NCBI GenBank assembly: GCA_900617105.1
Contig: UYFQ01000723.1
Location: 1-64,000, forward strand
DNA length: 64,000 bases
Origin: Hydrurus foetidus
Lineage: Eukaryota
Direction of reading: 5' to 3'
A program made the position numbers and the translations under genes. Within the stretch, counting starts at the first letter, position 1. Each line of letters begins with the position of its first letter. Below are positions 1 through 21,745 of this stretch, one piece after another. Below the pieces are notes generated by a model that had not been told where the DNA came from, ran no database searches, and saw only the letters and a program-made list of their open reading frames with translations.

Positions 1-65
1 TATTTTAAATGCGTTTTGTCTGTCTGCTAAATGTTGATTCAACTGGATCGGCTAAACTTGCTTGC

Positions 66-248
66 AACGAAAAAGGCTTGGCGTTGTTGGGGAATTCCGT
101 CCGCCCATAACCGAAGCCCAATGATTGCAATATTGCTGATGTTTTATTCATAAGCCAAATTTATAACGTCAAGCCCGAACTGAAGCACAATAAAGAACAA
201 ATGTTGAGGCAATATTCGTCAAGCCCCAATAATGCCAAACCTAATGTT
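66..248. repeat. attC-like array repeat 1
   Basis: AACGAAAAAGGCTTGGCG...GCCAAACCTAATGTT; about 7 bp shorter internally than other copies. Confidence 0.95.
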
Positions 249-259
249 GTGTGCCGTAA

Positions 260-740
260 TTATTCGTCCATAAAGTCACTTCCAAATAAAGTATAATCCT
301 ATTTGCCCTTCACTTTAGCTTTGTCCATAAAAAATGAGACATCTCTTTATTCCTTTTGTTTGTTTGTCCATTAAAACATAGCAATTTCTCCAACGTCATT
401 GTCAATGTCAAACTTACTTTTTGTCGAAACCTACTGAAAAGAGTTTTTAACATTTTCAAAATAAAGTCTTGAACTCAACTGTCATAAATCAAAGTCTATA
501 TGTAATGTCTAATATTTTTAATGACTGCCTCAAGTCTAACCTACTCCTCCAATTAAACTCAAAACACCTGAAGACTAGGCTTGATTTTCTATTTCTTTTT
601 GTAATATTCAATTCCATTGTCGCCCTTTGTCAACATAAGTCAGTTTTGAAACTTTACGAAAACTGTCCATCATTGAAATAGATAATTTTGACACGTCAAC
701 ATTAAAGAATATTCATTGAGTTGTTGAGTAAAAGTCATTG
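260..740 (-). CDS. Cassette B hypothetical protein (frameshifted; limits approximate)
   Basis: Fragmented minus-strand reading ending ...FGSDFMDE* beside the cassette end; no family recognised. Confidence 0.35.
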
Positions 741-811
741 TCTGTGTAATGAAATTTGTCGTCAAAATGATAGAAATATGTAGATTATTTTGTATTCTTA
801 TTATGGCACAC

Positions 812-994
812 AAAAGGCTTATGTTTGTTGGGAATTAGCATTCCGTCAGCCCATAACCGAAGCCCAATGATTGCAATATTGCTGATGTTTTATTCATAAG
901 CCAAATTTATAACGTCAAGCCCGAACTGAAGCTCAATAAAGAACAAATGTTGAGGCAATATTCGTCAAGCCCCAATAATGCCAAACCTAATGTT
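812..994. repeat. attC-like array repeat 2
   Basis: Same repeat; left end garbled (caaaaggcttatg). Confidence 0.9.
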
Positions 995-1021
995 GCACGT
1001 TGTTTTGTCGGTCTGACAATC

Positions 1022-1520
1022 TTAAATTCAACCGATACTTGTTTTTAAAATTCCAAGTTGTCTGTCTTGGTACCAAAATTTAGGACTCGTATTTGATAAT
1101 ATACAACCTGGTAAGTTTCTACTTGTCCTTTGTCAGCAAGTAATTAATTTCTTCCTGTTTTCCAAACAAGCAATTTGTATTGTCTTTTTTATGGCAAAAT
1201 GCTTGACTTGTACAAATTGTCAAAAAGTCTGTGTGAATTTTAAAGTTAATTGTTGTCCTAACAATTGGTCTGTGTCCAAGTTATAAATTTTGCTTTCTTT
1301 CTCGTCATTCAAAACGCAGTAAAAAGTTTTCTTTGGGGTTTGAAGTGTCAAGCGATAAATGTCTAAAACCTTCAATATTGATTGTGTCATTGAGAAAGGA
1401 AAACAAAAAAGCTTTTCTAAAAGATGATGAACCATTAATCATAACCTTTTTGTCCAACTTATTTTGTCCAAACAAAGTTGTCGAAAGTGTGATTAGTATT
1501 GTTAAATGAGTGGTCCTTAT
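1022..1520 (-). CDS. Cassette C (copy 1) secreted hypothetical protein
   Basis: Signal-peptide-like LILTILITLSTTLFGQ; near-identical to 7414-7925. Confidence 0.6.
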
Positions 1521-1530
1521 AAATGCGTGC

Positions 1531-1716
1531 AACGAAAAGGCTTGGCGTTTGTTGGGGAATTAGAATTCCGTCTGCCCATAACCGAAGCCCAATGATTGCA
1601 ATATTGCTGATGTTTTATTCATAAGCCAAATTTATAACGTCAAGCCCGAACTGAAGTACAAAGAACAAATGCTGAGGCTATATTCGTCAAGCCCCAATAA
1701 TGCCAAACCTAATGTT
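1531..1716. repeat. attC-like array repeat 3
   Basis: AAC at 1531 to GTT ending 1716. Confidence 0.95.
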
Positions 1717-1732
1717 AGTGGTGGCGTTTTGT

Positions 1733-2365
1733 TTTAGTTTGTCTGAATTTCACAATTGTACATAGTCCAATTTATGTTTAGTATTTGTCGGTCTTTTATT
1801 ATTGTTTATTTTTTTTGTTATAGACTTCAAGTATTGCTCCTAAAACAGAATTGTTTTGTCATACTTATTTACTTTGCTGAATGTAAATATTGTCATTATT
1901 TCATTCTCGTATCTGTCAATTTCGTTGCTATTAATAATTTGATATAAACTTTCATCGTTTTTTTCTGTTAGAATTGATTTTTCAGCTCTATAATCTTATC
2001 GAATACTGTGTCATCATACTGCTATTCAAAAACTGAAACCAAATTGTCCTTCTAAAGTCTCAAGTCTCTACTAAGGAACAATAAGCTTTGTCCTTTTGTC
2101 AGAATTTGAAACTTTAAATCATATCAAGCTCTCTCCAACAACTGGTATATGTTTGATGTCATAATGGAGTTTGTAAATCTTATAGAATTGGTTTTCAAGT
2201 GTAGTCAAGTTTCTTTGCGTTATAACATCTGTCAAAAGCTGCTATAGAAAGTTCTTTTCAATATTATCAGGGTCGATTGATTCAATGATTTTGCAAAGTT
2301 CAAATGAATCACAATTGCCATTTTCTTTTTCATGTGTTGTAAAAAACAATTGTAATGTTAAACAT
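1733..2365 (-). CDS. Cassette D (copy 1) hypothetical protein
   Basis: Near-identical to 5698-6340 but with more indels. Confidence 0.6.
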
Positions 2366-2411
2366 TGATTTCTTTATAAAATTGAGGATGTAAGTCATTT
2401 TACGTTGCCGC

Positions 2412-2600
2412 AACGAAAAAGGCTTGGCGTTTGTTGGGGAATTAGTATTCCGTCTGCCCATAACCGAAGCCCAATGATTGCAATATTGCTGATGTTTTAT
2501 TCATAAGCCAAATTTATAACGTCAAGCCCGAACTGAAGCACAATAAAGAACAAATGTTGAGGCTATATTCGTCAAGCCCAATAATGCCAAACCTAATGTT
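2412..2600. repeat. attC-like array repeat 4
   Basis: AAC at 2412 to GTT ending 2600. Confidence 0.95.
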
Positions 2601-2610
2601 GGTAGTAGTT

Positions 2611-3130
2611 TTATTCTTCATCGTTTTGTCAAAAATTAATCGCTAAATTACTATTGACAGCAAGTTCAAATCGCTTTCCAAGTTTAATTTTTCAGTTCTC
2701 TCAAAAGCTATATTGCCAATTTCTAATAAAGCTGGATTTAGTTTGTCCAACATTTTGCCCGATGAAATTTCTTCCAATTGTCCTTTTTATACTTTTATAT
2801 GTTAAATTCTTCAAAATTTCTCAATTCAAATTCTGCTGGATTACAAAGTCGACTACCATTTAATGGTTTAAATAATTCTGCTTGTTCAAAAATCTTTGTT
2901 TGCCATATGTTCGTCATATAATACTTCTTATTCCGTTGATTTGACTTTTCAACTGATTTTAATTGAGTTTGTCTTTCTGTCAAAATTAATTGAACTTTTA
3001 CAGCAGCGTTAGGGTCAGTCCAAATATTTATAGTATAAATTTTAAAATCTGATATTCTTTTTACTATTCTACTAAATGCTTTGTCAACTAAAATACTCAT
3101 TTCAGTTATGTACAAAGTCTTGTCAAAACT
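2611..3130 (-). CDS. Cassette E hypothetical protein (limits approximate)
   Basis: ORF 2795-3187 (...FKIYTINIWTDPNAA...LCNPAEFELRNF) continues in another frame to the cassette end. Confidence 0.5.
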
Positions 3131-3185
3131 TGATTTAAAAAATTGAATAAATATTAGGAATTTTTGGGTCTTTAAAAATTGCACC

Positions 3186-3373
3186 AACGAAAAAGGCTTG
3201 GCGTTGTTGGGGAATTAGATTCCGTCTGCCCATAACCGAAGCCCAATGATTGCAATATTGCTGATGTTTTATTCATAAGCCAAATTTATAACGTCAAGCC
3301 CGAACTGAAGCACAATAAAGAACAAATGTTGAGGCTATATTCGTCAAGCCCCAATAATGCCAAACCTAATGTT
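3186..3373. repeat. attC-like array repeat 5
   Basis: AAC at 3186 to GTT ending 3373. Confidence 0.95.
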
Positions 3374-3384
3374 GGCTGCAGTAT

Positions 3385-3920
3385 TTATTTTCTTTGAAAT
3401 AGTTCAATAATTTGTTCTTTGTCGAAACAGATAAGCTTTAAAACATTCTCTCCCCAATGGTTTGATTTAATTGCCAACTCATTTGTGAAATTGAATTTAA
3501 CTATACCACCTTTTAACATTGTCATTTGACTCTGTCTTAGCAAAGGTGTCAACTCAATTATTCTATCAAAATGAAGACTTGTGTCTTTGTTTAATCGCTC
3601 TGAAATATGCACACCATTTATTGAAGGAACCCAATGTCCTTTATAACCAATGTCCAAAAATTGTGTATGAAATTAATGATGTCGCATTAAACAAATTCAA
3701 CTTGTTTCTAAAATTTTTACCTTAAACTGTCAATATGGATACTGTCTTTGATTTGTCCACCAATCCAATTCATATGTGGTGGTAACTTCATTTTTAGGTT
3801 TCTTTGGTTCTGTTGATAAAATATTTTGTTTACCAAAGTCTGTTGTATAAAAGTAAATAATACTTAGTCCAATAATAACTATTGCAAAAATTATCAATAT
3901 CCATTTAATAAGTTTTCTCT
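3385..3920 (-). CDS. Cassette F membrane-anchored hypothetical protein
   Basis: N-terminal hydrophobic stretch KWILIIFAIVIIGLSIIYFY; C-terminal part is ORF 3385-3657. Confidence 0.55.
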
Positions 3921-3932
3921 ATAATTGCTGCC

Positions 3933-4122
3933 AACGAAAAAGGCTTGGCGTTTGTTGGGGAATTAGTATTCCGTCTGCCCATAACCGAAGCCCAATGATT
4001 GCAATATTGCTGATGTTTTATTCATAAGCCAAATTTATAACGTCAAGCCCGAACTGAAGCACAATAAAGAACAAATGTTGAGGCTATATTCGTCAAGCCC
4101 CAATAATGCCAAACCTAATGTT
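3933..4122. repeat. attC-like array repeat 6
   Basis: AAC at 3933 to GTT ending 4122. Confidence 0.95.
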
Positions 4123-4149
4123 GTTGCTTTGGTCAACCAGACGAAAGCT

Positions 4150-4625
4150 ATTGAAATAATTTTATAACCTGTCAATCATTGTCATATCTACGCTTTTACT
4201 TTTCTTTTTAGTCAAATAAATAAACTTTCCATAGTTCGTCTAAATTAGTCAAGTTTATTAACTCTTGTTTTTGTCTGCGTAAATAAACTTCAAAACTTCT
4301 TCCCGTTACAATCAATCGTTTTCAATTTTACTGTCAAGAAATCTTTGTGTCTCGTTTAAATAAAAAGCATAGTCGTCAGCACCAACATAAAAAATCTTCT
4401 CCCAACTCTTTTTCCTTTTGCAATTTGTAAACTGTCTGCATCTCTACTATTACTGCACAAGTTTGGTCTACAACTAAGTGTCAGTATTAACAGTTTTGTC
4501 TCTACTTGGTAGTTGCATTTTTGTTGTGTCAATTTGGTTATTGTCATTATTAGATGCTTGATTGCAAGATGCAAACATAGTCAGTCCAAAAAATAATGTC
4601 TTTGAAGTAAAGTTGAAAGTGTCAT
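4150..4625 (-). CDS. Cassette G putative lipoprotein (frameshifted)
   Basis: Stitched reading ...TLFFGLTMFASCNQASNNDNNQIDTTK... contains a lipobox-like FASC. Confidence 0.55.
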
Positions 4626-4676
4626 TTTATGTTTTGATTTTATTGCAAGTTTTGGTGGTCAAATAAAGTTGCAGCC

Positions 4677-4866
4677 AACGAAAAAGGCTTGGCGTTTGTT
4701 GGGGAATTAGAATTCCGTCAGCCCATAACCGAAGCCCAATGATTGCAATATTGCTGATGTTTTATTCATAAGCCAAATTTATAACGTCAAGCCCGAACTG
4801 AAGCACAATAAAGAACAAATGTTGAGGCAATATTCGTCAAGCCCCAATAATGCCAAACCTAATGTT
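4677..4866. repeat. attC-like array repeat 7
   Basis: AAC at 4677 to GTT ending 4866. Confidence 0.95.
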
Positions 4867-5489
4867 GCAAGCAGGTTTTCTTTCCTGTCGTTCTATTTTG
4901 TGTTCCTTTCAAACTAAAACCAGTTTCAATTTGTGAATGAGTTTTGTCGAACCCAAACAAGTTTTAAACATATAAATAATTACAAAATTTTTCTACGAGT
5001 TGTTCTTTGTCAAACCACAACAAAACTGCAAATGGTGAGCAAGATTTGAATTTATAAACTTCTGTTTTCTTTGTCAACTTGCAGCAATTTCAAAACCTAA
5101 AAACAAGTCTAAATTACGTCTGCTTAAAATGGTCAGTATCTTTTACTCAACTCGTCAGTATGTTTTGCCAAACTCATCAGTATCTTTTACAAACTCGTCT
5201 ATATGTTTTTGAACCTTGCTTTTGTTCTTGTTTGTTGCAGCATTTAGTCAAGCAATTTTGTCTGCACTTGGTGATTGTCCAACCAATTTTGTTATGTCCT
5301 GCTTTTTAGACTTTAGCAAAAGTCCACCAAGAACAAAAGATGAAAAAGAACTGATGCCCTAAAAACTACGAAAGCCAAATTGAAAAACAAAAGTTGATGT
5401 GGGCTTTGGCTCAAGTCTTACCAGATATTTTAAATGCGTTTTGTCTGTCTGCTAAATGTTGATTCAACTGATCGGCTAAACTTGCTTGC
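4867..5489. other. Cassette A (apparently ORF-less); further copies at 6575-7195 and partially at 1-65
   Basis: No minus-strand ORF of 60 aa or more in either full copy; plus-strand ORFs are short and unconvincing; 3 x ~22 bp tandem at 5132-5199. Confidence 0.6.
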
Positions 5490-5679
5490 AACGAAAAAGG
5501 CTTGGCGTTTGTTGGGGAATTAGTATTCCGTCTGCCCATAACCGAAGCCCAATGATTGCAATATTGCTGATGTTTTATTCATAAGCCAAATTTATAACGT
5601 CAAGCCCGAACTGAAGTACAATAAAGAACAAATGTTGAGGCTATATTCGTCAAGCCCCAATAATGCCAAACCTAATGTT
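5490..5679. repeat. attC-like array repeat 8
   Basis: AAC at 5490 to GTT ending 5679. Confidence 0.95.
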
Positions 5680-5697
5680 AGTGGCAGGCGTTTTGTT

Positions 5698-6340
5698 TTA
5701 GCTTGTCTGAATTTCACAATTGTACATAGTCCAATTTATGTTTAGTATTTGTCGGTCTTTGATATTGTTTATTTTTTTGTTATAGACTTCTTATGGGCTG
5801 TCTTCTAAAACAGAATTGCTTTGTCATACTTATTTACTTTGCTATAACTGTAAATATTGTCAATTATTTCATTCTCGTATCTGTCAATTTCTTTGTCGCT
5901 GTTATTAATAATTTGATATAAACTTTCATCGTTTTTTCTGTTAGAATTGATTTTTCAGCTTCTATAATCTTATCGAATACTGTGTCAGACATACTGCTAT
6001 TCAAAAACTGAAAACCAAATTGTCCTTCTAAAGTCTCAAGTCTCTCTACTAAGGAACAATAAGCTTTGTCCTTTGTCAGAATTTGAAACTTTAAATCAAT
6101 ATCAAGCTCTCTTCCAACAACTGGTATATGTTTGATGTCATAATGGAGTTTGTAAATCTTTATAGAATTGGTTTCAAGTGTAGTCAAGTTTTGCAAGTTA
6201 TAACATCTGTCAAAAGCTGCTATAGAAAGTTCTTCAAATATTATTTCAGGGTCGATTGATTCAATGATTTTGCAAAGTTCAAATGAATCACAATTGCCAT
6301 TTTCTTTATGTGTTGTAAAAACAATTGTAATGTTAAACAT
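5698..6340 (-). CDS. Cassette D (copy 2) hypothetical protein, possibly TraB/ChaN-like fold
   Basis: ORF 5864-6340 MFNITIVFTTHKENGNC...PEIIFEEL, with a frameshifted C-terminus (YDKAILF...AH); the fold call is a motif-level guess. Confidence 0.65.
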
Positions 6341-6384
6341 TGATTTCTATAAAATTGAGGATGTGTCATTTTACGCTTGCCGCT

Positions 6385-6574
6385 AACGAAAAAGGCTTGG
6401 CGTTTGTTGGGGAATTAGAATTCCGTCAGCCCATAACCGAAGCCCAATAATTGCAATATTGCTGATGTTTTATTCATAAGCCAAATTTATAACGTCAAGC
6501 CCGAACTGAAGTACAATAAAGAACAAATGCTGAGGCAATATTCGTCAAGCCCCAATAATGCCAAACCTAATGTT
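6385..6574. repeat. attC-like array repeat 9
   Basis: AAC at 6385 to GTT ending 6574. Confidence 0.95.
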
Positions 6575-7195
6575 GCAAGCAGGTTTTCTTTCCTGTCGTT
6601 CTATTTTGTGTTCCTTTCAAACTAAAACCAGTTTCAATTTGTGAATGAGTTTTGTCGAACCCAAACAAGTTTTAAACATATAAATAATTACAAAATTTTT
6701 TCTACGAGTTGTTCTTTGTCAAACCACAACAAAACTGCAAATGGTGAGCAAGATTTGAATTTATAAACTTCGTTTTCTTTGTCAACTTGCAGCAATTTCA
6801 AAACCTAAAAACAAGTCTAAATTACGTCTGCTTAAAATGGTCAGTATCTTTTACTCAACTCGTCAGTATGTTTTGCCAAACTCATCAGTATCTTTTACAA
6901 ACTCGTCTATATGTTTTGAACCTTGCTTTTGTTCTTGTTTGTTGCAGCAATTTAGTCAAGCAATTTTGTCTGCACTTGGTGATTGTCCAACCAATTTTGT
7001 TATGTCCTGCTTTTTAGACTTTAGCAAAAGTCCACCAAGAACAAAAGATGAAAAGAACTGATGCCCTAAAAACTACGAAAGCAAATTGAAAAACAAAAGT
7101 TGATGTGGGCTTTGGCTCAAGTCTTACCAGATATTTTAAATGCGTTTTGTCTGTCTGCTAAATGTTGATTCAACTGATCGGCTAAACTTGCTTGC
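6575..7195. other. Cassette A, second full copy
   Basis: Near-identical to 4867-5489. Confidence 0.6.
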
Positions 7196-7385
7196 AACGA
7201 AAAAGGCTTGGCGTTTGTTGGGGAATTAGTATTCCGTCTGCCCATAACCGAAGCCCAATGATTGCAATATTGCTGATGTTTTATTCATAAGCCAAATTTA
7301 TAACGTCAAGCCCGAACTGAAGCACAATAAAGAACAAATGTTGAGGCTATATTCGTCAAGCCCCAATAATGCCAAACCTAATGTT
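7196..7385. repeat. attC-like array repeat 10
   Basis: AAC at 7196 to GTT ending 7385. Confidence 0.95.
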
Positions 7386-7413
7386 GCACGCCGTTTTGGT
7401 CGGTCTGACAATC

Positions 7414-7925
7414 TTAAATTGTCAACCGATACTTTGTTTTAAAATTCCAAGTTGTCTGTCTTACAATAAAATTTAGGACTCGTATTTGATAATATACAAC
7501 CTGCAAGTTTCACTTGTCCTTTGTCAGCAAGTGCAATTAATTTCTTCCCAGGTTTTCCATAAACAAAAGGAATTACATTGTCTTTTTATGGCAAAATGGG
7601 CAAAGTTTTGACTTGTACAAATTGTCAAAAAGTCTGTGTCAGGAATTTTAAAGTTAATTGTTGTGTCTAACAATTGGTCTGTGTCAAGTTATAAATTTTG
7701 CTTTTCTCGTCATTCAAAACGCAGTAAAAGTTTTCTTTTGGGGTTTGAAGTGTCAAGCGATAAATGTCTAAAACCTTCAATATTGATTGTGTCATTGAGT
7801 AAAGGGAAAACAAAAAGCTTTGTCAAAAGATGATGAACCATTAATCATAACCTTTTGTCCAACTTATTTTGTCCAAATAAAGTTGTCGAAAGTGTGATTA
7901 GTATTGTTAAAATGAGTGGTCTCAT
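7414..7925 (-). CDS. Cassette C (copy 2, leader-proximal) secreted hypothetical protein
   Basis: ATG at 7925: MRPLILTILITLSTTLFGQNKLDK... Confidence 0.65.
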
Positions 7926-7937
7926 AAAATGGCGTGC

Positions 7938-8075
7938 AACTCAAAATATACGCATTGCCATTTTGCCAAATATTTTTGAGTCTAAATAATTGTTTTCAAT
8001 CAATGTTTGCAAATATGTACGTAGTTTCAAAACTACGTACATTTCAATATTTTTTCAACTACGTACATTTCAATA
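7938..8075 (-). promoter_or_regulatory. Array leader: attI-like junction plus candidate Bacteroidota promoter with operator-like repeats
   Basis: The final AAC (7938) is not followed by a repeat. Minus strand has TTG (8056-8058), 20 bp spacer, TAGTTTTG (8028-8035). There is a 13 bp inverted repeat at 8015-8042 and a 19 bp direct repeat at 8031 and 8057. Confidence 0.55.
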
Positions 8076-8102
8076 GTTGTATTTTTTCTTACTACTTTCT
8101 AT

Positions 8103-8441
8103 TTAAGGCTTCGCCTTTCCCATCAATCTATTGCTTCCTTCAAGGTTGCCACTTGTATTTTTAGGTTTTCATTTTCTTTTTGCAAAGCTTCAACATCGGC
8201 ATTGGGTATGGGTGCATTGCTTGGTGGCAGGTGGTTTAGCTGTGCTGCTATTTGTTCAAAAAATTATAGTTTAGCACTTGACAAATTTTAAATAGGGTAT
8301 CTATTTTGGCATTGGGATTTTTAACAAATCCTTCAACAGCACTGGCACCAATACCCATTTGCTTTGCCCAACCTGCTTTAAAAATTCTTTTTCTTTTACA
8401 TAAGCATTTAGCATATTGCCTATATGGGGAGATTCTATCAT
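8103..8441 (-). CDS. XRE-like helix-turn-helix protein with C-terminal coiled coil
   Basis: Stitched MIESPHIGNMLNAYVKEKRIFKAGWAKQMGIGASAVEGFVKNPNAKIDTLFKICQVLNYNF...LQKENENLKIQVATLKEAI. Confidence 0.7.
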
Positions 8442-8665: not shown

Positions 8666-9157
8666 TTATGGATTTGGTGTGCTTTGTCTGCCACCACCAT
8701 TGTTTTATATCTTTCCTTTAGTTTCCTGCCCTGGTTTGTGCACCTGCAACACCTGCATCTGCCAGGTTTTGATATTGTTCATAAAATACATTGGCTACTT
8801 TATAGCTTTCGGCAGCTACCACTCGTTTGGTTTGCTGCACTCTTGTTATTTGTGCCATCAACCAATTTTCGCTGTCTAATTGTTCAAAAAACTAACATCT
8901 TTAACCAACTCGGGGGCTAGTGCTGCATAGGCTGGTGGCAGCATTGCGTAAGCCTTCGGCATCGGTTACTGCCACAGCATCTTTTACAAAAACATAATTA
9001 TCTACATCAATACTGGGTGTGCATCTTCCTCCTCTTTTGTAAGGGTAACTGTTTTGCCGTTAATAATACCACTGTATGTGGTGTGGGCTGTGCCAAGCGA
9101 TGTAAGCTCGGCAGCAGTAAACGTGTTGCTAACACGATTGACATTAATGTTTGCCAT
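8666..9157 (-). CDS. Hypothetical alpha-helical protein (~160 aa)
   Basis: MANINVNRVSNTFTAAELTSL...SIDVDNYVFVKDAV...AESYKVANVFYEQYQNLADAGVAGAQTRAGKLKERYK (stitched). Confidence 0.7.
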
Positions 9158-9388
9158 AATTTCTTTGTTTTAAATGATTTAATAAATTAACAAGGCAAAA
9201 ATGAAAATTTGGTTTGATATTTTTGGGTGTTTTCACCCAAAATCATTGGGTGAAAACACCATTGTTTAAGCACAAAAAATATCTTATGCAAATTTTTAAT
9301 AATAGATAATCTCTTGAATAATTCGTCTCTCCGTCTATAGAAGAAGTCTTTAAACAATTCTGTTAGGTTGGCGTTTACACAAAGAAGA

Positions 9389-13960: not shown

Positions 13961-16900
13961 TTGCGAAATAAACAACACTTTTACCCAATACCCCAAAGAC
14001 TATTTCTAAAAACACCAGGCAAAAATCTTCTCTTCACAAAACAATACTACTGTAGTAAATTCATTTACTGTTGTTGCAATTGGTGCATCAGCAGGAGGTT
14101 TAGAAGCCATTACACAATTTCTGCAAAGCCTCTCTCCTACTACAGGTATGGCATATATTTATGTGCAGCACCTCAGCCCAGATCATAAAAAGTATTTAAG
14201 TGAACTGCTTTCAAAGACCACAAAAATGAAAGTGCAGGATGTGGAAGATATGGACAAGATAGAACCAACAGTGTTTATGTAATTCCCTACAACAAAGCAA
14301 TTGAAGTAACTGATGGGCATATAAAATTATTACCACGACCATCAAAATCTTATATTCTTAGCATTGATATTTTATTTTCTTCTTTAGCCGAAACGCATAA
14401 AGAAAACGTGATTGGCATTGTACTTTCGGGCAGTGCAAATGATAGCACACAAGGATTAAAGAAATTAAAACTGCTGGAGGAATCACTTTGCACAAGATTC
14501 AGCAAAATATAGTAGTATGCCAAAATCTGCCATTGCTGCTGGTGTGGTTGATTTTATTTTGTCACCAAAAGACATTGCTAAGAAATTAAACTGGATGAGC
14601 AAGCATCCTTTAATTAAAAGAAATGGTGTAAAAATTTACCCGAAGATGAAATTGATAATAACAATCTTGACCTGAAATTTATACTGCAACTTTTATATAA
14701 AAAGAATGTAGATTTTAGTTATTATAAAATGAACACCATTAAACGAAGGATTTTGCGAAGAATGGTGATACATAAAATTGCTTTAAAACAATATGCAAAG
14801 TATGTAGAAGAGGAAAGTAATGAAGTGAATTTATTGTATGAAGATTTGCTAATTAACGTTACCGAATTTTTAGAGACCGAAGCTTTTTATTGTTAAAGAA
14901 AACAGTATTACCTCGATTACCAAAAGCAAAACACAAGGCGAAGCATTGCGTATTTGGTGGCTGCTTGTGCCACAGGCGAGGAGAGTGTATTCTTTGCAAT
15001 GCTATTATTTGAAATACAAGATAATAAAATTAAACCATTCCTTTTCAGATTTTCGCTTCCGATTTAAGTGAGGGTGCCATTGCAGAAGCCAGGATTGGCG
15101 AGTATTCTGATGAACAACTTAAAATGTTTCTGCAAAAAGATTGCAACGTTTTTTACCAGAGTAAAGATAAATATCGTGTTTCAAAATTGCTGCGAGATGT
15201 GTGCATTTTGCCCACACAATATTTTAAACGACCCTCCATTTTCAAGAATGGATTTAATAAGTTGCCGTAACTTGTTGATTTATTTTGAACTGCCTGCACA
15301 AAAAGCCCTAACAACTTTTCATTACGCACTCAACGATAATGGTTGTTTAATGTTGGGCAAATCAGAAACCATTGGCTCATCTGCTCATTTATTTACTACG
15401 CCTCTTAATAAAAAATAAAATATATACCCGAAAAATAGTTCAGGTAACAACAGATTAACTGATATTACACCTCGTATTCTTCAAAATTCAATTGAGAAAA
15501 GTATCAATACAATTCCAAAATTACCGGCAACAAATGGTAATCTTAGCAATGCTTTCGATTCTTTTTACTTGCTCAGTATATGCCAGCAAGTGTGGTTATT
15601 ATATCGTGATTTAGAGATTTTGCAATTAGAGGTGCAACATCATTGTATCTTCAAAATGCTTCGGGCAAAGCCAGTTTAAATATCTTAAAAATGGCTCATA
15701 TTGAATCACATTTGAGCTTCGTAATGCCATTCATCACTCCATAAAAACAAAACAAACCGTTCGCAAAACAGGCATCGAAATGAATAGAATAAGTGATGGT
15801 TTGTTGAAAATTGTGAACAGAAGTATCGCCACTTAAAATAGAAGGAGAAGAAGATTTATTAGTTATTGTTTTACAGCAGAGCAACCAAAAAGATCATTGA
15901 CCAAAATAATAAAATGGTAATAGCAATTCCATTGCAAAAATAGAAGAATAAAAAGTTGGAAGAAGAAATTTCCGCTGCTCGTTTGATATGGCTTCTATTA
16001 CCCAAGATCAAGAAGCTGCTAACGAAGAACTGCAAAGTGCCAATGAAGAAATTGTTTCGAGCAATGAAGAATTGCAAAGTTTAAACGAAGAACTAGAAAC
16101 ATCAAAAGAAGAAATAGAATCTACCAATGAAGAATTGATTACTACCAACCAAAATTACAGGCACGCATTCAACAGGTAGAATTGTATAATTACAATCAAA
16201 TTATTCTTGATACCATTCACGAGCCAATGCTCATTCTTGATAAAAATATTCGTATCAAATCTGCCAATAAATCCTTCTGCAAAGCCTTTCACGTTTCAGA
16301 AGAAGAAAGCATTGGAATATCTTTATACAAACTGGGAAATAACCAATGGAACATTCCACGTCTGCGTGAATTAGTAGAAGAAATTATCCCCTAAAACAAT
16401 CGTTTTCAAACTTTGAAGCAGAACATACTTTTCCTGTTATTGGTCATAAATAATGTTGTTAAATGCACATCGCATTATTCAAAAAAGCAATAATGAAAGA
16501 ACTAATCGTACTATCAATTATTGATATTACAGATACAAGAAAATTAGCACTTGCACTACAAGAAAAAGAAAAGAAAATATTAGAGTTCAGTTGGAAGCCG
16601 AGAAAAAAGAAAAAATAATTGAAGACAGCGAGAACGCTACAATATGATGCTGATGCAATCGCCCTATGCCTTTGCAATATTAAAAGGGAAAGACAAAGTG
16701 ATTACACTTGCCAACGACCGTGTGAAAGAAATGGGGAAAAGGAAATGATGTAGAAGGTAAACCATTTCTTAAATTGCTACCCGAATTAAAAAAACACCCT
16801 TATCCTGCTTTGCTTGATGAGGTATATGCCACAGGTATTCTTATCAAAATGCCGAATCTCCAGCATCTATTGTACGCAATGGAATTGTTGAAACAAGTTA

Positions 16901-18600
16901 TTTTAATTTTGTTTATCAGCCCTATCATGAAGCAGATGAAACCATATCGGTGTTACTATTATTGCTATAGAAGTAACAGCTGATGTGGTGGTTAAAAGCA
17001 CTGGAAGCCCAACATAATGCAGAAAAAAAGAAAAGAAATTTTAGTAAAAACAAGTGAGCATTTTAATAGATTGGTAAAAGATTGCCTGCTGCTGTTTACT
17101 CTTGCGATGCAAAATGGATTTATCAATTTTTATAACGATGCAGCAGTTGAAGTTTGTGGTTATAAACCCAAATTGGCAAAGACCTTTGGTGTGGTTTTAT
17201 AAAATTTTTAATATTGATGTTACAGTTGTACCATTAGATAAATACCAATGGCAATGGCATTGCAAGAAGGTCGTAGTATGATGGGTGAGGAAATAATTAT
17301 TGAAAGACCCGATGGCAGCCAACGCCACGTATTGGTACATCCACAGCCACAGTTTGGCTTAGATGGCGAAATTATTGGTGCTATTAATATGGTAATTGAT
17401 ATTACTGATGAAGTGATAGCAAAAATGAATTAATAGTAGCTAAAAGCAAAGCAGAACAAAAACACAAATTGCAGAAGATGCAGTAAAAGCAAAGCAGCAA
17501 TTTTGAGCAATATGAACGAAATTCGCACACCAATGAATGCCATTATTGGTTTTACGAATGTGCTGTTAAAAACAAATTTAGATGAATCTCAAAAGAATAT
17601 CTCAATGCCATTAAAATTTCTGGCGATGCATTAATTGTTCTAATCAATGATATTTTAGACCTTACTAAAATAAATTCTGGTAAAATGACCTTTGAGCAAA
17701 CACAGTTTGATTTAAAGTATTCCATTACTACCATTCTGCAATTATTCAACCAAAAGTTAAAGAGAACAATGTTGAATTGATTAAGGAATACGACAATAAT
17801 ATTCCTTCCATTTTATTGGGTGATCCACTTCGCTTACATAAATATTATTAAACCTTTTAAGCAATGCTGTAAAGTTTACTAAAGAAGGTACCATAACAAT
17901 TTGTGTTAAAATATTGAATGAAGATGCTGAAAAATAACTATTGAATTTTTCGCTCTGTGATACTGGTATTGGCATCCCTGCAAATAAACTAAAACATTTT
18001 CAACAGTTTTGAACAAGCTTCACAGGAACCTCTCGTTCTTATGGAGGCTCTGGTTTGGGGCTAGCCATTGCAAAACAATTGGTGGAATTACAAGGTGGTA
18101 ATATTAGTGTAACCAGCAAAGTGGGCAAAGGCTCAATCTTTGTATTTACACTTGATTTTATGAAAGTAAATGCGTTGCCATACAGCAAGCAGAGCAAGCA
18201 AATAAATTAATTCAAGATGAATCTGCTATAAAGCCACTAACCAAGACTATCAAGGTTTTGGTGGCAGAAGATGTTGCTTTAAATCAATTGCTGATAAAGA
18301 TAATTTTAATGGATTTTGGGTTCGAGTTTGATATTGCAGCCAATGGTAAAAAGCGATTGAACAGTTGCAAAAATAAGTATGATATTATTTTAATGGATTT
18401 GCAAATGCCCGAAATGGATGGCTTTGAACTCACCGATTATATTAGAAACAAACTACAATCTACTATACCAATTATTGCCCTCACAGCAGATGTAACCACC
18501 ATAGATGTGGCAAAATGTTCAGCTATTGGAATGAACGACTATATATCAAAACCAATTGACGAAAAATTGCTTTATAGTAAGATTATAAAAGTATATTTAG
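13961..18600 (+). CDS. CheB-CheR-PAS hybrid histidine kinase/response regulator (many frameshifts; start approximate)
   Basis: Che[24 protein letters not shown]; Che[22 protein letters not shown]; coiled coil [33 protein letters not shown] repeats; H-box [37 protein letters not shown]. Confidence 0.85.
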
Positions 18601-19324: not shown

Positions 19325-21745
19325 ATGGATAAATTGCAAAATCAGTAGAGACAAGTTAATTATTGCGAATAAGGAACTTGCTTTTCAAAATGAAGAGAAG
19401 GGAAAACGTGCAGCAGAATTAGTTATTGCTAATAAAGAGCTTGCTTTTCAAGATGAAGAAAAGGAAAACGTGCAGCAGAATTGGGTATCGCCATTATAGA
19501 ACTTGCTTTTCAAGATGATGAAAAAGTGAAGCGTGCAGATGAATTAATTATTGCTAACAAAGAACTTCTTTATCAAAATGATGAAAAAGAAAACGTGCAA
19601 ATGAATTAATCATTGCCAATAAAGAACTTGCTTTTCCAAAATTGATGAAGGAAAAACGTGCAAATGAGTTAATCATTGCCAATAAAGAACTTGCTTTCAG
19701 AATGATGAAAAGAAAAAGCGTGCAAATGAATTAATTATTGCTAATAAAGAACTTGTTTTCAAAACGATGAGAAGGCAAAACGTGTAGCAGAATTAGGCAT
19801 TGCAAACTATGCAAGAAGCCTTATAGAAGCCAGTCTTGATCCACTTTTCACCATTAACACGGAAGGTAAAATAATGGATATGAATAACGCTTCAATCAAC
19901 GTTTTAGGTAAGTCTCCAAAGAATTAATTGATACTGATTTTTTGATTATTTCACCGAGCCAACAAAAGCAAGAGAAGGTTATCGTGAAGTTTTTGCAAAA
20001 GGATTTGTAGCAGATTATCCATTAACAATTAAGGATCATAAATTAACAGATGTATTATTCAATGGCTCTATTTACAAAGATGAAGCAGGAAATGTATTGG
20101 GCGTTGTTGTTGTGGCAAGAGATATTACTGAACAAAAATATTTGAAAAGGATTAACCGAAGCAAAAATATTTGCCGAGTTAGCTACAACCATTGCTGAAG
20201 ATGCTCAAAGCAAAGCAGAGCTGCAATGCGTATTGCAGAAGATGCTGTGAAAGCAAAGCAGCAATTTTTAAGCAATATGAGCCACGAAATTCGCACCCAA
20301 TGAATGCTATTATTGGTTTTACAAAAGTGGTGCTGAAAACAGATTTATCTGCCAAACAAAAGAATATTTAACAGCCATTAAAATGAGTGGCGATGCATTG
20401 ATTGTTTTAATAAATGACATTCTTGATTTAGCAAAAGTGGATGCTGAGTAAAATGACATTTGAGCAAACACCTTTTAAAATGGCAATGTCTATTGCTGCA
20501 ATGTTGCATTTATTTGAAACAAAAATTCAAGAGAAAAATTTAGAGTTGGTTAAAGAATATGATACCAATATTCCAGAAGTTTTAATTGGTGATTCGGTGC
20601 GTTTGCATCAAATTATTTTAAACCTTGTAAGCAATGCTGTAAAGTTTACGAACGAAGGCAAAATCATAGCTAGTGCGTTTGAAAAGTGAAGATGAAGAAA
20701 TGTAATGCTTGAATTTGCTATTACCGATACTGGAATTGGTATTTCGGAAAATAAGTTGGATAAAATTTTTGAGAATTTTCAACAAGCATCTAGTGGCACA
20801 TCAAGATTGTTTGGTGGCACAGGTTTAGGACTTGCTATTGTGAAACAATTAGTAGAATCACAAGGTGGAAAAATTAGCGTAAAAAGTAAAGTTGATATAG
20901 GCTCTACTTTAGTTTTACTTTAAGTTTTAAGAAAACAAAAGAAGCTGCCGAAATAGAAAATGGCAGTTGAAGTGAATAGAGAAATTAAAAATATTAAGGT
21001 GTTAGTAGTAGAAGATATTGCACTCAATCAACTTTTGATGAAACATTATTAGATGATTTTGGCTTTGAAAGAACATTGCTGGCAATGGAAAAATTGCTAT
21101 TGAAAAACTACAAACAAAACTTACGATATTATTTTAATGGATTTGCAAATGCCCGAAATGAATGGTTGGAAGCCACAACATATATTCGTAACACAATGAA
21201 ATTAAATGTTCCTATTATTGCCTTAACAGCCGATGTAACCACAGTTGATTTAGCAAAATGCAAAGCAGTAGGAATGAATGATTACATAGCAAAACCTGTT
21301 GATGAAAGAGTATTGTATAGTAAAATAATTGGATTGGTAAAAAACAACAGCTATTAAATTGGAGGAAAATGTGATGAACGCAAACAAAAATTAAAGTATA
21401 TTGACTTGGAATATTTAATGCATCGAACCAAGTCGAATCTGAATTGATGATGGAAATGATTTCGCTTTATTTAGAGCAAACACCGCCATTGATAAAGCAA
21501 TGAGGAAAGTTTGCTAAAAAGATTAGCAAACTTTGTATGCAGCCGTACATAAAATGATTCCATCTTTTCTATAGTTGGCATACATACAGACTTTGAAGCA
21601 ATGGCTAAAAAATACAAGATTTTGCCAATAGTCAAACAATTAATGAAGGCATTCAAGATTTAGTGTTGCAGCTAGAAACTGTCTGTACACAAGCTTGTGA
21701 AGAATTGAAGAAGAATTAAACCGAATTAAAAACACTGGAAAATGA
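19325..21745 (+). CDS. Hybrid PAS histidine kinase-REC(-Hpt) with N-terminal 21-aa repeats
   Basis: YARSLIEASLDPL PAS; FLSNMSHEIRTP; GGTGLGLAIVKQLVE; REC; Hpt-like 21370-21745 is probably fused but could be a separate gene. Confidence 0.85.
19353..19810 (+). repeat. 63 bp coding tandem repeat, 7 copies plus a partial
   Basis: Unit encodes approximately ELIIANKELAFQNDEKEKRAN. Confidence 0.9.

Follow-up and report, generated by a model that had tools for sequence, protein, structure and literature searches.

Repeated gene cassettes in an integron-like array with an intact entry site and no recombinase gene: possible copies re-inserted at the leader

Described systems and the cassette array

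The integron integrase IntI1 inserts cassettes at the first array position by copy-and-paste, according to the available part of one study (PMC8024014), and in an accessible portion of another IntI is described as excising one strand while replication restores the donor (PMC3458562). Almost no complete integrons are reported from Bacteroidetes in the part of the IntegronFinder 2.0 paper at hand (PMC9024848). From the Bacteroidales comes rAID-1 (bioRxiv 10.1101/471110), which the available section of its text defines by a 5' XerD-like recombinase over 44% identical to BF9343_RS08045. Here we analyse 64,000 nucleotides of contig UYFQ01000723.1 (GCA_900617105.1), referred to below as the window, whose first 7.9 kb hold an array of gene cassettes, some of them repeated. 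The array is integron-like and without a recombinase gene, and its entry site, a leader sequence, is intact. In the reading we favour, to which we give an even chance, the repeated cassettes are copies re-inserted at the leader by a recombinase that is not IntI, the originals staying in place.

The array spans bases 1-7940 and consists of ten repeats of 177-184 bp between cassettes that begin with GTT and finish with AAC on the plus strand. All cassette genes lie on the minus strand and point away from a unique leader starting at 7938. By coordinate, the 11 slots read A (partial), B, C, D, E, F, G, A, D, A, C. The two complete copies of A, A2 (4864-5492, slot 4 from the leader) and A3 (6572-7198, slot 2), are 99.0% identical, with zero mismatches and six one-base indels. 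D1 (1714-2414) and D2 (5677-6387, slot 3) are 91.9% identical, with 9 mismatches and 32 gap events, and C1 (992-1533) and C2 (7383-7940, slot 1) are 89.4% identical, with 13 mismatches and 30 gap events. The partial copy of A (1-68), a 5' cassette end cut by the window start, agrees with the end of A2 and A3 in 67 of 69 columns. These duplicates make up 3 of the 45 pairs among the ten complete cassettes, and the remaining 42 pairs are 53.7-57.7% identical. An earlier note, made from the letters of this DNA, had placed A, D and C at coordinates that match ours except that they leave out the terminal GTT/AAC triplets. It had also stressed that the duplicates have different neighbours, and this is borne out: each of the 11 adjacencies is unique in the array, so that tandem duplication of a block is rejected as the source of the copies.

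The other cassettes each occur once in the window, but the array runs past base 1 and B, E, F and G may have further copies outside. B (246-810) has a weak homolog (32%) in another array, E occupies 2598-3188, F (3371-3935) is matched by a contig of the public sequencing run X2 with 17 differing letters and 9 gaps in 599, and G (4120-4679) has a homolog in genome G268 with 76% DNA identity. Each cassette is followed in the gene direction by a repeat that we regard as its attC-like site, also on the minus strand: R1 (69-245, a noisy copy) for B, R2 (811-991, garbled at one end) for C1, R3 (1534-1713) for D1, R4 (2415-2597) for E, R5 (3189-3370) for F, R6 (3936-4119) for G, R7 (4680-4863) for A2, R8 (5493-5676) for D2, R9 (6388-6571) for A3 and R10 (7199-7382) for C2. 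An Rfam scan of the repeats gave 0 matches. A terminal stem is present in a set of 160 repeats, where Watson-Crick pairs make up 60-88% at most of its positions, and folding beats base shuffles in 56 and 54 of 60 repeats.

The cassettes also differ from their surroundings in composition. The trinucleotide GAC occurs about 30 times per kb in the window cassettes (246-7940) against 4. On the coding strand of cassette genes, taken from the window and from relatives' arrays (L074-L091, L176-L265), it is about fourfold enriched in all three frames, with 13.6/4.4/6.3 per kb by frame against 3.6/1.2/1.2 in host genes (143 and 81 genes), and the share of GAC among Asp codons is 0.65 against 0.21. This enrichment is not a read error, since it is present in finished genomes too, and it could be used as a cassette marker.

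Duplicates, leaders and recombinases in relatives

The window alone cannot carry the claim of re-insertion, and finished relatives supply most of the support. The finished chromosome G004 has five array regions and one recombinase of 399 amino acids (aa), and the leaders heading its four other arrays are 82-86% like the recombinase's own. Its cassettes recur within arrays (slots 4/29, 8/13, 7/27 and 18/26) and between arrays. In G118, 6 of the first 8 slots are duplicated and the open reading frames (ORFs) are long and intact. Both G118 and G381 have first-slot cassettes that duplicate cassettes from elsewhere in their own genome, in other arrays.

The divergent repeats of these relatives reveal what moves. 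All 14 duplicate pairs compared (10 from G004 and 4 from G118, which partly share copies) have downstream repeats that are 96.3-100% identical. The upstream repeat is only 54-69% identical in 11 of the 14, and 99.5, 91.8 and 89.8% in the other three. The background identity of repeats has a median of 67.7%, and 2 of 561 pairs reach at least 99%. Because the downstream repeat is shared in all 14 pairs, the mobile unit is a gene with its downstream repeat, cut at GTT, as in site-specific and not homologous recombination. The comparison with sister genomes that the earlier note had proposed supports parts of its interpretation. The counts exclude an IS110 group, a 475-bp element in G105, one cross-genome pair, five pairs with a downstream repeat under 95% and, by a 9-kb gap rule, G004 array d; some relatives' arrays are cut by the ends of the sequence examined.

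The arrays of relatives carry further insertions. In G004, large repeats considered as group II introns turned out to be IS1182, two IS110 types and an IS91 element (C1:2170001-2250000, 2530001-2610000, 5800001-5832000 and 140000-192000). About 17 IS1182 copies sit at the GTT end of repeats, the two IS110 types lie inside repeats, and three copies of the IS91 element, with its own 300-aa recombinase, are found at distal array parts. Some array heads of G004 (C1:2241500-2242000 and 2532000-2532500) have the leader as two or three spaced, diverged copies, and regions d and e contain internal leader copies. A 23-slot array in G105 (L188:6800-17480) contains four copies of the 475-bp element, whose ends are repeat-like.

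The attI-like leader of the window (7938-8106, minus strand) is conserved in three of the five genomes tested, with identities of 87-94% in G003, 73-75% in G005 and 77-78% in G001, where the match is partial. Of 401 family genomes, 4 have a match at E under 1e-10. In metagenomes, one scan with the leader gave 0 matches and a second 58, none of which aligns to the window's leader. At each of five loci in G003 and G005, as in the window, the leader ends in GA|GTT and a different first cassette follows, which supports the leader as a true, conserved insertion site. In G005 it comes directly after the stop region of the recombinase, as it partly does in G003. At 7980-8070 the leader has an inverted repeat as well as a direct one of about 18 bases, both conserved in G003 and G005 and candidate binding sites for the recombinase.

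A tblastn search of the window with 7 recombinases found no gene (best E 1.7). The gene order in G001 is a 164-aa gene, a 113-aa gene, the recombinase, the leader and the cassettes. The window has the same order minus the recombinase, with frameshifted homologs of the 164-aa gene (8730-9157) and of the 113-aa gene (8129-8388), both on the minus strand; in G001 these lie two genes upstream of the recombinase and directly before it. A 9-base motif (8107-8115, minus strand), which G002, G003 and G005 have upstream of the recombinase gene, directly adjoins the leader here and at three further loci without a recombinase. Since the upstream motif now abuts the leader, the recombinase gene was apparently lost cleanly and the entry site stayed. 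Of 40 wider loci, only 3 have the motif in their short upstream stretch, which makes it a trait of this clade.

Recombinase-less leaders that fuse the recombinase's upstream motif to its downstream sequence are present in three genomes (window 8107-8115; L032:2900-2910; L099; L045). They occupy different chromosomal settings, as a non-autonomous entry-site module. A 37-base palindrome upstream of the 164-aa gene (window 9222-9260; L266:8543-8579) is conserved in G003, where the module bearing it has another chromosomal setting and homology stops near 9340. The only recombinase gene found in G003 precedes a truncated leader without a cassette (L098:2309-2362), and the arrays of this genome hang on recombinase-less leaders.

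The affinities of the window point to the Chitinophagaceae. A 20-base repeat pattern matched 54 stretches, mostly from this family, and the window backbone is syntenic to and 77-88% identical with G003, a Chitinophagaceae metagenome-assembled genome. G003, the closest genome compared, encodes the enzyme and has recombinase-less leaders as well. The cognate enzyme is a tyrosine recombinase of about 390 aa (389 aa in G005, 399 aa in G004) with Phage_int_SAM_4 and Phage_integrase domains and an N-terminal extension of about 100 aa, co-oriented with the array. Relatives' recombinases score 167-177 bits on TIGR02249, in two stretches, and none of five genomes has a recombinase above the cut-off of 265. 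The IntI insertion is absent: VchIntIA 179-256 aligns to query 276-311, about 42 residues shorter. In 40 recombinase loci selected for long contigs, of which 34 had enough downstream sequence, a repeat lies at most 2.6 kb downstream of the recombinase in 26 of the 34, and 411 of 412 repeat hits are in cassette orientation. Among the best 15 of 239 plasmid matches, every homolog is below 60% identity and none is a Bacteroidales enzyme.

The genome behind the window presumably encodes such a non-IntI recombinase of about 390 aa elsewhere, and it may still have a working enzyme. The earlier note had likewise called for a recombinase acting in trans. This fits the window, where no gene was found, and the finished genome, in which one recombinase stands beside recombinase-less arrays.

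Further along the window lies a signalling cluster, labelled from ORF text. It has two paralogous, candidate sensor-kinase-like segments (17439-18586 and 20203-21329, 71% identical), a tandem repeat with a period of about 63 bases (19356-19806) and a coiled-coil repeat with a 21-base period (16021-16158).

Readings of the repeated cassettes

In the re-insertion reading, the repeat would fold as a single-strand hairpin, and, by analogy with IntI, one strand would be excised and replication would restore the donor array. The excised circle would integrate at the leader and shift older cassettes outwards, and the four latest events would be A, then D, A again and then C. A wider picture, which we put forward tentatively and rate somewhat below an even chance, is that a Bacteroidota recombinase without the IntI hallmark does integron-style copy-and-paste, that a single enzyme gene serves non-autonomous entry sites which form a network and arose by clean gene loss, that the window is a snapshot of four successive re-insertions, and that the cassettes carry their own strand-specific signature, the fourfold enriched GAC.

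Several observations weigh against re-insertion from within the array. The repeats behind the window copies are not identical (R7/R9 98.4%, R3/R8 96.7%, R2/R10 94.6%), and R10, the repeat of C2, equals R6 and not R2 of C1. The best match agrees for two of the three copy pairs, a weak sign of the downstream repeat travelling with its gene, and the test is itself weak in the window because all its repeats are 92-100% alike. A bottom-strand folding preference was not found (27 of 60 repeats), and the window repeat folds no better than dinucleotide shuffles (z -0.48 and +0.37). The semi-conservative, single-strand excision that the earlier note invoked is established for IntI and attC only, and the cognate enzyme here is not IntI; the repeats show no bottom-strand bias. 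At the level of the family, 247 of 401 genomes have no recombinase match at E<=1e-100.

Polarity is a second difficulty. While duplication itself is far beyond chance, polarity within the window is only modestly so. All four leader-proximal slots are indeed duplicates, as had been noticed, but given these 11 slots the probability that four proximal slots are all multi-copy types is 35/330=0.106, and that seven distal slots are all different is 12/330=0.036. The relatives give a clearer signal: 32 duplicated slots among 340 have a mean relative position of 0.373, nearer the leader (permutation p=0.0018; 0.008 without G118 and 0.04 for G004 alone), although 4 genomes supplied all of them and they are not independent. 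In six pairs within single arrays, the copy closer to the leader shows no significant proximal shift (p=0.17). Of the polarised copy-and-reinsert activity that the earlier note proposed, the shift towards the leader holds in relatives, and either copy of a pair may be the original.

The likeliest alternative is an assembly mosaic, in which the contig joins molecules from several cells, or from several arrays of one genome, with differing cassette orders. Switch points could be the blocks repeat+A+repeat (1013 bp) or repeat+D+repeat (about 1100 bp). Every adjacency would then exist in some molecule, and shuffling would be real while the within-array copies would not. We consider this rather unlikely, but there is a good deal in its favour. 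The contig is unpolished, with a longest ORF of 218 aa and only 9 ORFs of at least 130 aa in 8000-64000, and its accuracy is uneven. The backbone has 3.5-13.9 frameshifts per kb (12 genes against proteins of G003), D1 has 20-28 per kb (12-17 frameshifts against four homologous proteins), D2 about 3 per kb (2 frameshifts) and G about 21 per kb (10 in about 470 nt); the counts for B and C were set aside, their homologs being distant or partial. D2 has far fewer errors than D1 and the backbone, as would happen if reads had gathered on one copy; R8 and R9 have the look of mixed repeat variants, blocks of up to 1 kb are shared, and relatives carry several arrays with shared cassettes. Public sequencing runs (21 listed, 5 aligned, all as contigs) share at best 0.13 of the window words. 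The aligned runs contain the repeat family, alleles of A and F and parts of B and C, but they are uninformative on order or habitat, as no contig among the five spans two neighbouring cassettes. The cassette order rests on contig assembly, not on single molecules.

The errors of the individual copies speak against a mosaic. Run X3 has the complete allele of A, and X1 and X8 most of it, and three public runs agree on six indels relative to A2. Two of these are private to A2, three are homopolymer deletions also present in A3, and one is a letter run short in A2 and A3 alike; A3 has additional private indels. Each copy carries its own indels, so the copies were not pasted from one consensus and their differences are read errors. 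It follows that divergence between copies is no measure of age. The three shared homopolymer deletions could be taken as a sign of a mosaic, but such deletions are a known systematic long-read error. A2 and A3 are one allele, since 0 substitutions separate the two, whereas the public alleles depart from A2 at 5 of 560, 12 of 673 and 7 of 293 letters. A mosaic with 11 distinct adjacencies would also require several switches, and the same pattern is seen in well-assembled genomes. Noise marks no join, because G is a single-copy cassette and as noisy as D1. For the same reason the idea that the distal 2.4 kb are a lone noisy read joined on is unsupported, as G stands beside A2. That the distal copies are old decayed originals is rejected, as their differences are mainly indels.

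A less probable alternative, and in our view an unlikely one, accepts recombinase-made insertions at the leader but derives them from sister-cell DNA or another array, with no semi-conservative excision here. Vibrio integrons take cassettes from transformed single-stranded DNA without a replicative step, as stated in the available part of one report (PMC12614218), the first-slot cassettes of G381 and G118 do copy other arrays of their own genome, and cassette A is present in at least three public runs. The match of all four proximal slots to this array's cassettes favours a local source instead. Local copying, mosaic and import have in common that each calls for a recombinase that is active or was so until recently.

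The least probable reading, and a very doubtful one, is that the 184-bp repeats, being nearly identical, exchanged by homologous recombination or gene conversion; no working recombinase would then be required, and the originals may be the proximal copies. This would suit the close likeness of the window repeats, the lack of a recombinase in cis and the repeats behind the copies, which differ at 2-3 of 5 variable sites as hybrids would, but R9 is nearest R7, R3 is nearest R8, and in relatives the downstream repeat moves whole with its gene and the upstream one does not (11/14). The break at GTT/AAC, which the earlier note had taken as a discriminator, fails as one here, as exchange within such similar repeats would look identical. 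What does discriminate is the placement of C2: it meets the leader directly at GA|GTT, lacking a preceding repeat, and recombination between repeats could not have put it there.

Comparison with known systems

The array shares much with IntI integrons. The cassettes are co-oriented, promoterless-looking and bounded by GTT...AAC inverted ends, as also in attC-site clusters that have no integron integrase (CALIN). The unit is a gene with its downstream site, the fixed entry site ends in GTT, duplicates with new neighbours are found near the entry site, there are arrays without a recombinase in cis, and insertion sequence elements lie at the sites. The differences concern the enzyme, which here has no IntI insertion but has the N-terminal extension and is co-oriented with the array, and the sites, which are about 185 bp long with no bottom-strand folding bias detected. 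By the usual marks of an integron, the window has no integrase gene adjoining attI and the relatives' enzymes have no IntI-type insertion. Ten sites with no integrase in 64 kb would suit a CALIN, but the array is cut at base 1. CALINs are described as degraded integrons, whereas the loci here keep an attI-like leader.

A Bacteroidota gene that integrates with a downstream stem-loop and without flanking homology is described, in the available part of the text, for aph(3')-IVb of Riemerella anatipestifer (PMC13148043). Its attC-like element of 140 bp is likened to the repeats here by description only, and that part of the text has 0 occurrences of 'integrase' or 'recombinase'. In a search that left most subscription journals outside, we found no publication describing cassette duplication, polarity or trans action of this family of recombinases, and the accessible portion of PMC13616975 holds nothing on this system.

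IntI-based surveys are nearly blank in Bacteroidetes, going by the part of the survey cited above, yet the recombinase matches 154 of 401 Chitinophagaceae genomes (E<=1e-100). In a genome, duplicates with new neighbours are the footprint by which live shuffling can be told from a gene cluster that stays fixed. If the copies were left by replication, the IntI insertion would be dispensable for hairpin recombination, and if the re-insertion reading is true, recombinase-less arrays with an intact entry site would be active and not fossils.

The closest described platform is rAID-1. As far as the available text of that report goes, relatives' loci share with it an XerD-like tyrosine recombinase 5' of co-directional, low-GC genes, integron-like intergenic repeats and a distinct motif between the recombinase and the first gene. 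Its definition includes at least two co-directional downstream genes with a GC content of at most 41%, and the cassettes of the window are all on the minus strand with a GC of 0.32-0.34. It also includes toxin-immunity cargo in the portion at hand; the cassette pieces scanned, including the family of about 210 aa to which the D2 protein belongs, gave no match in Pfam or PADLOC, which still leaves room for immunity genes. The host here is Chitinophagaceae-like and not Bacteroidales, there is no recombinase in cis, and the enzymes are compared by description only. The word stem 'duplicat' has 0 occurrences in the available part of the rAID-1 main text. Among these known systems, the array works like a sedentary integron, yet fails the IntI test.

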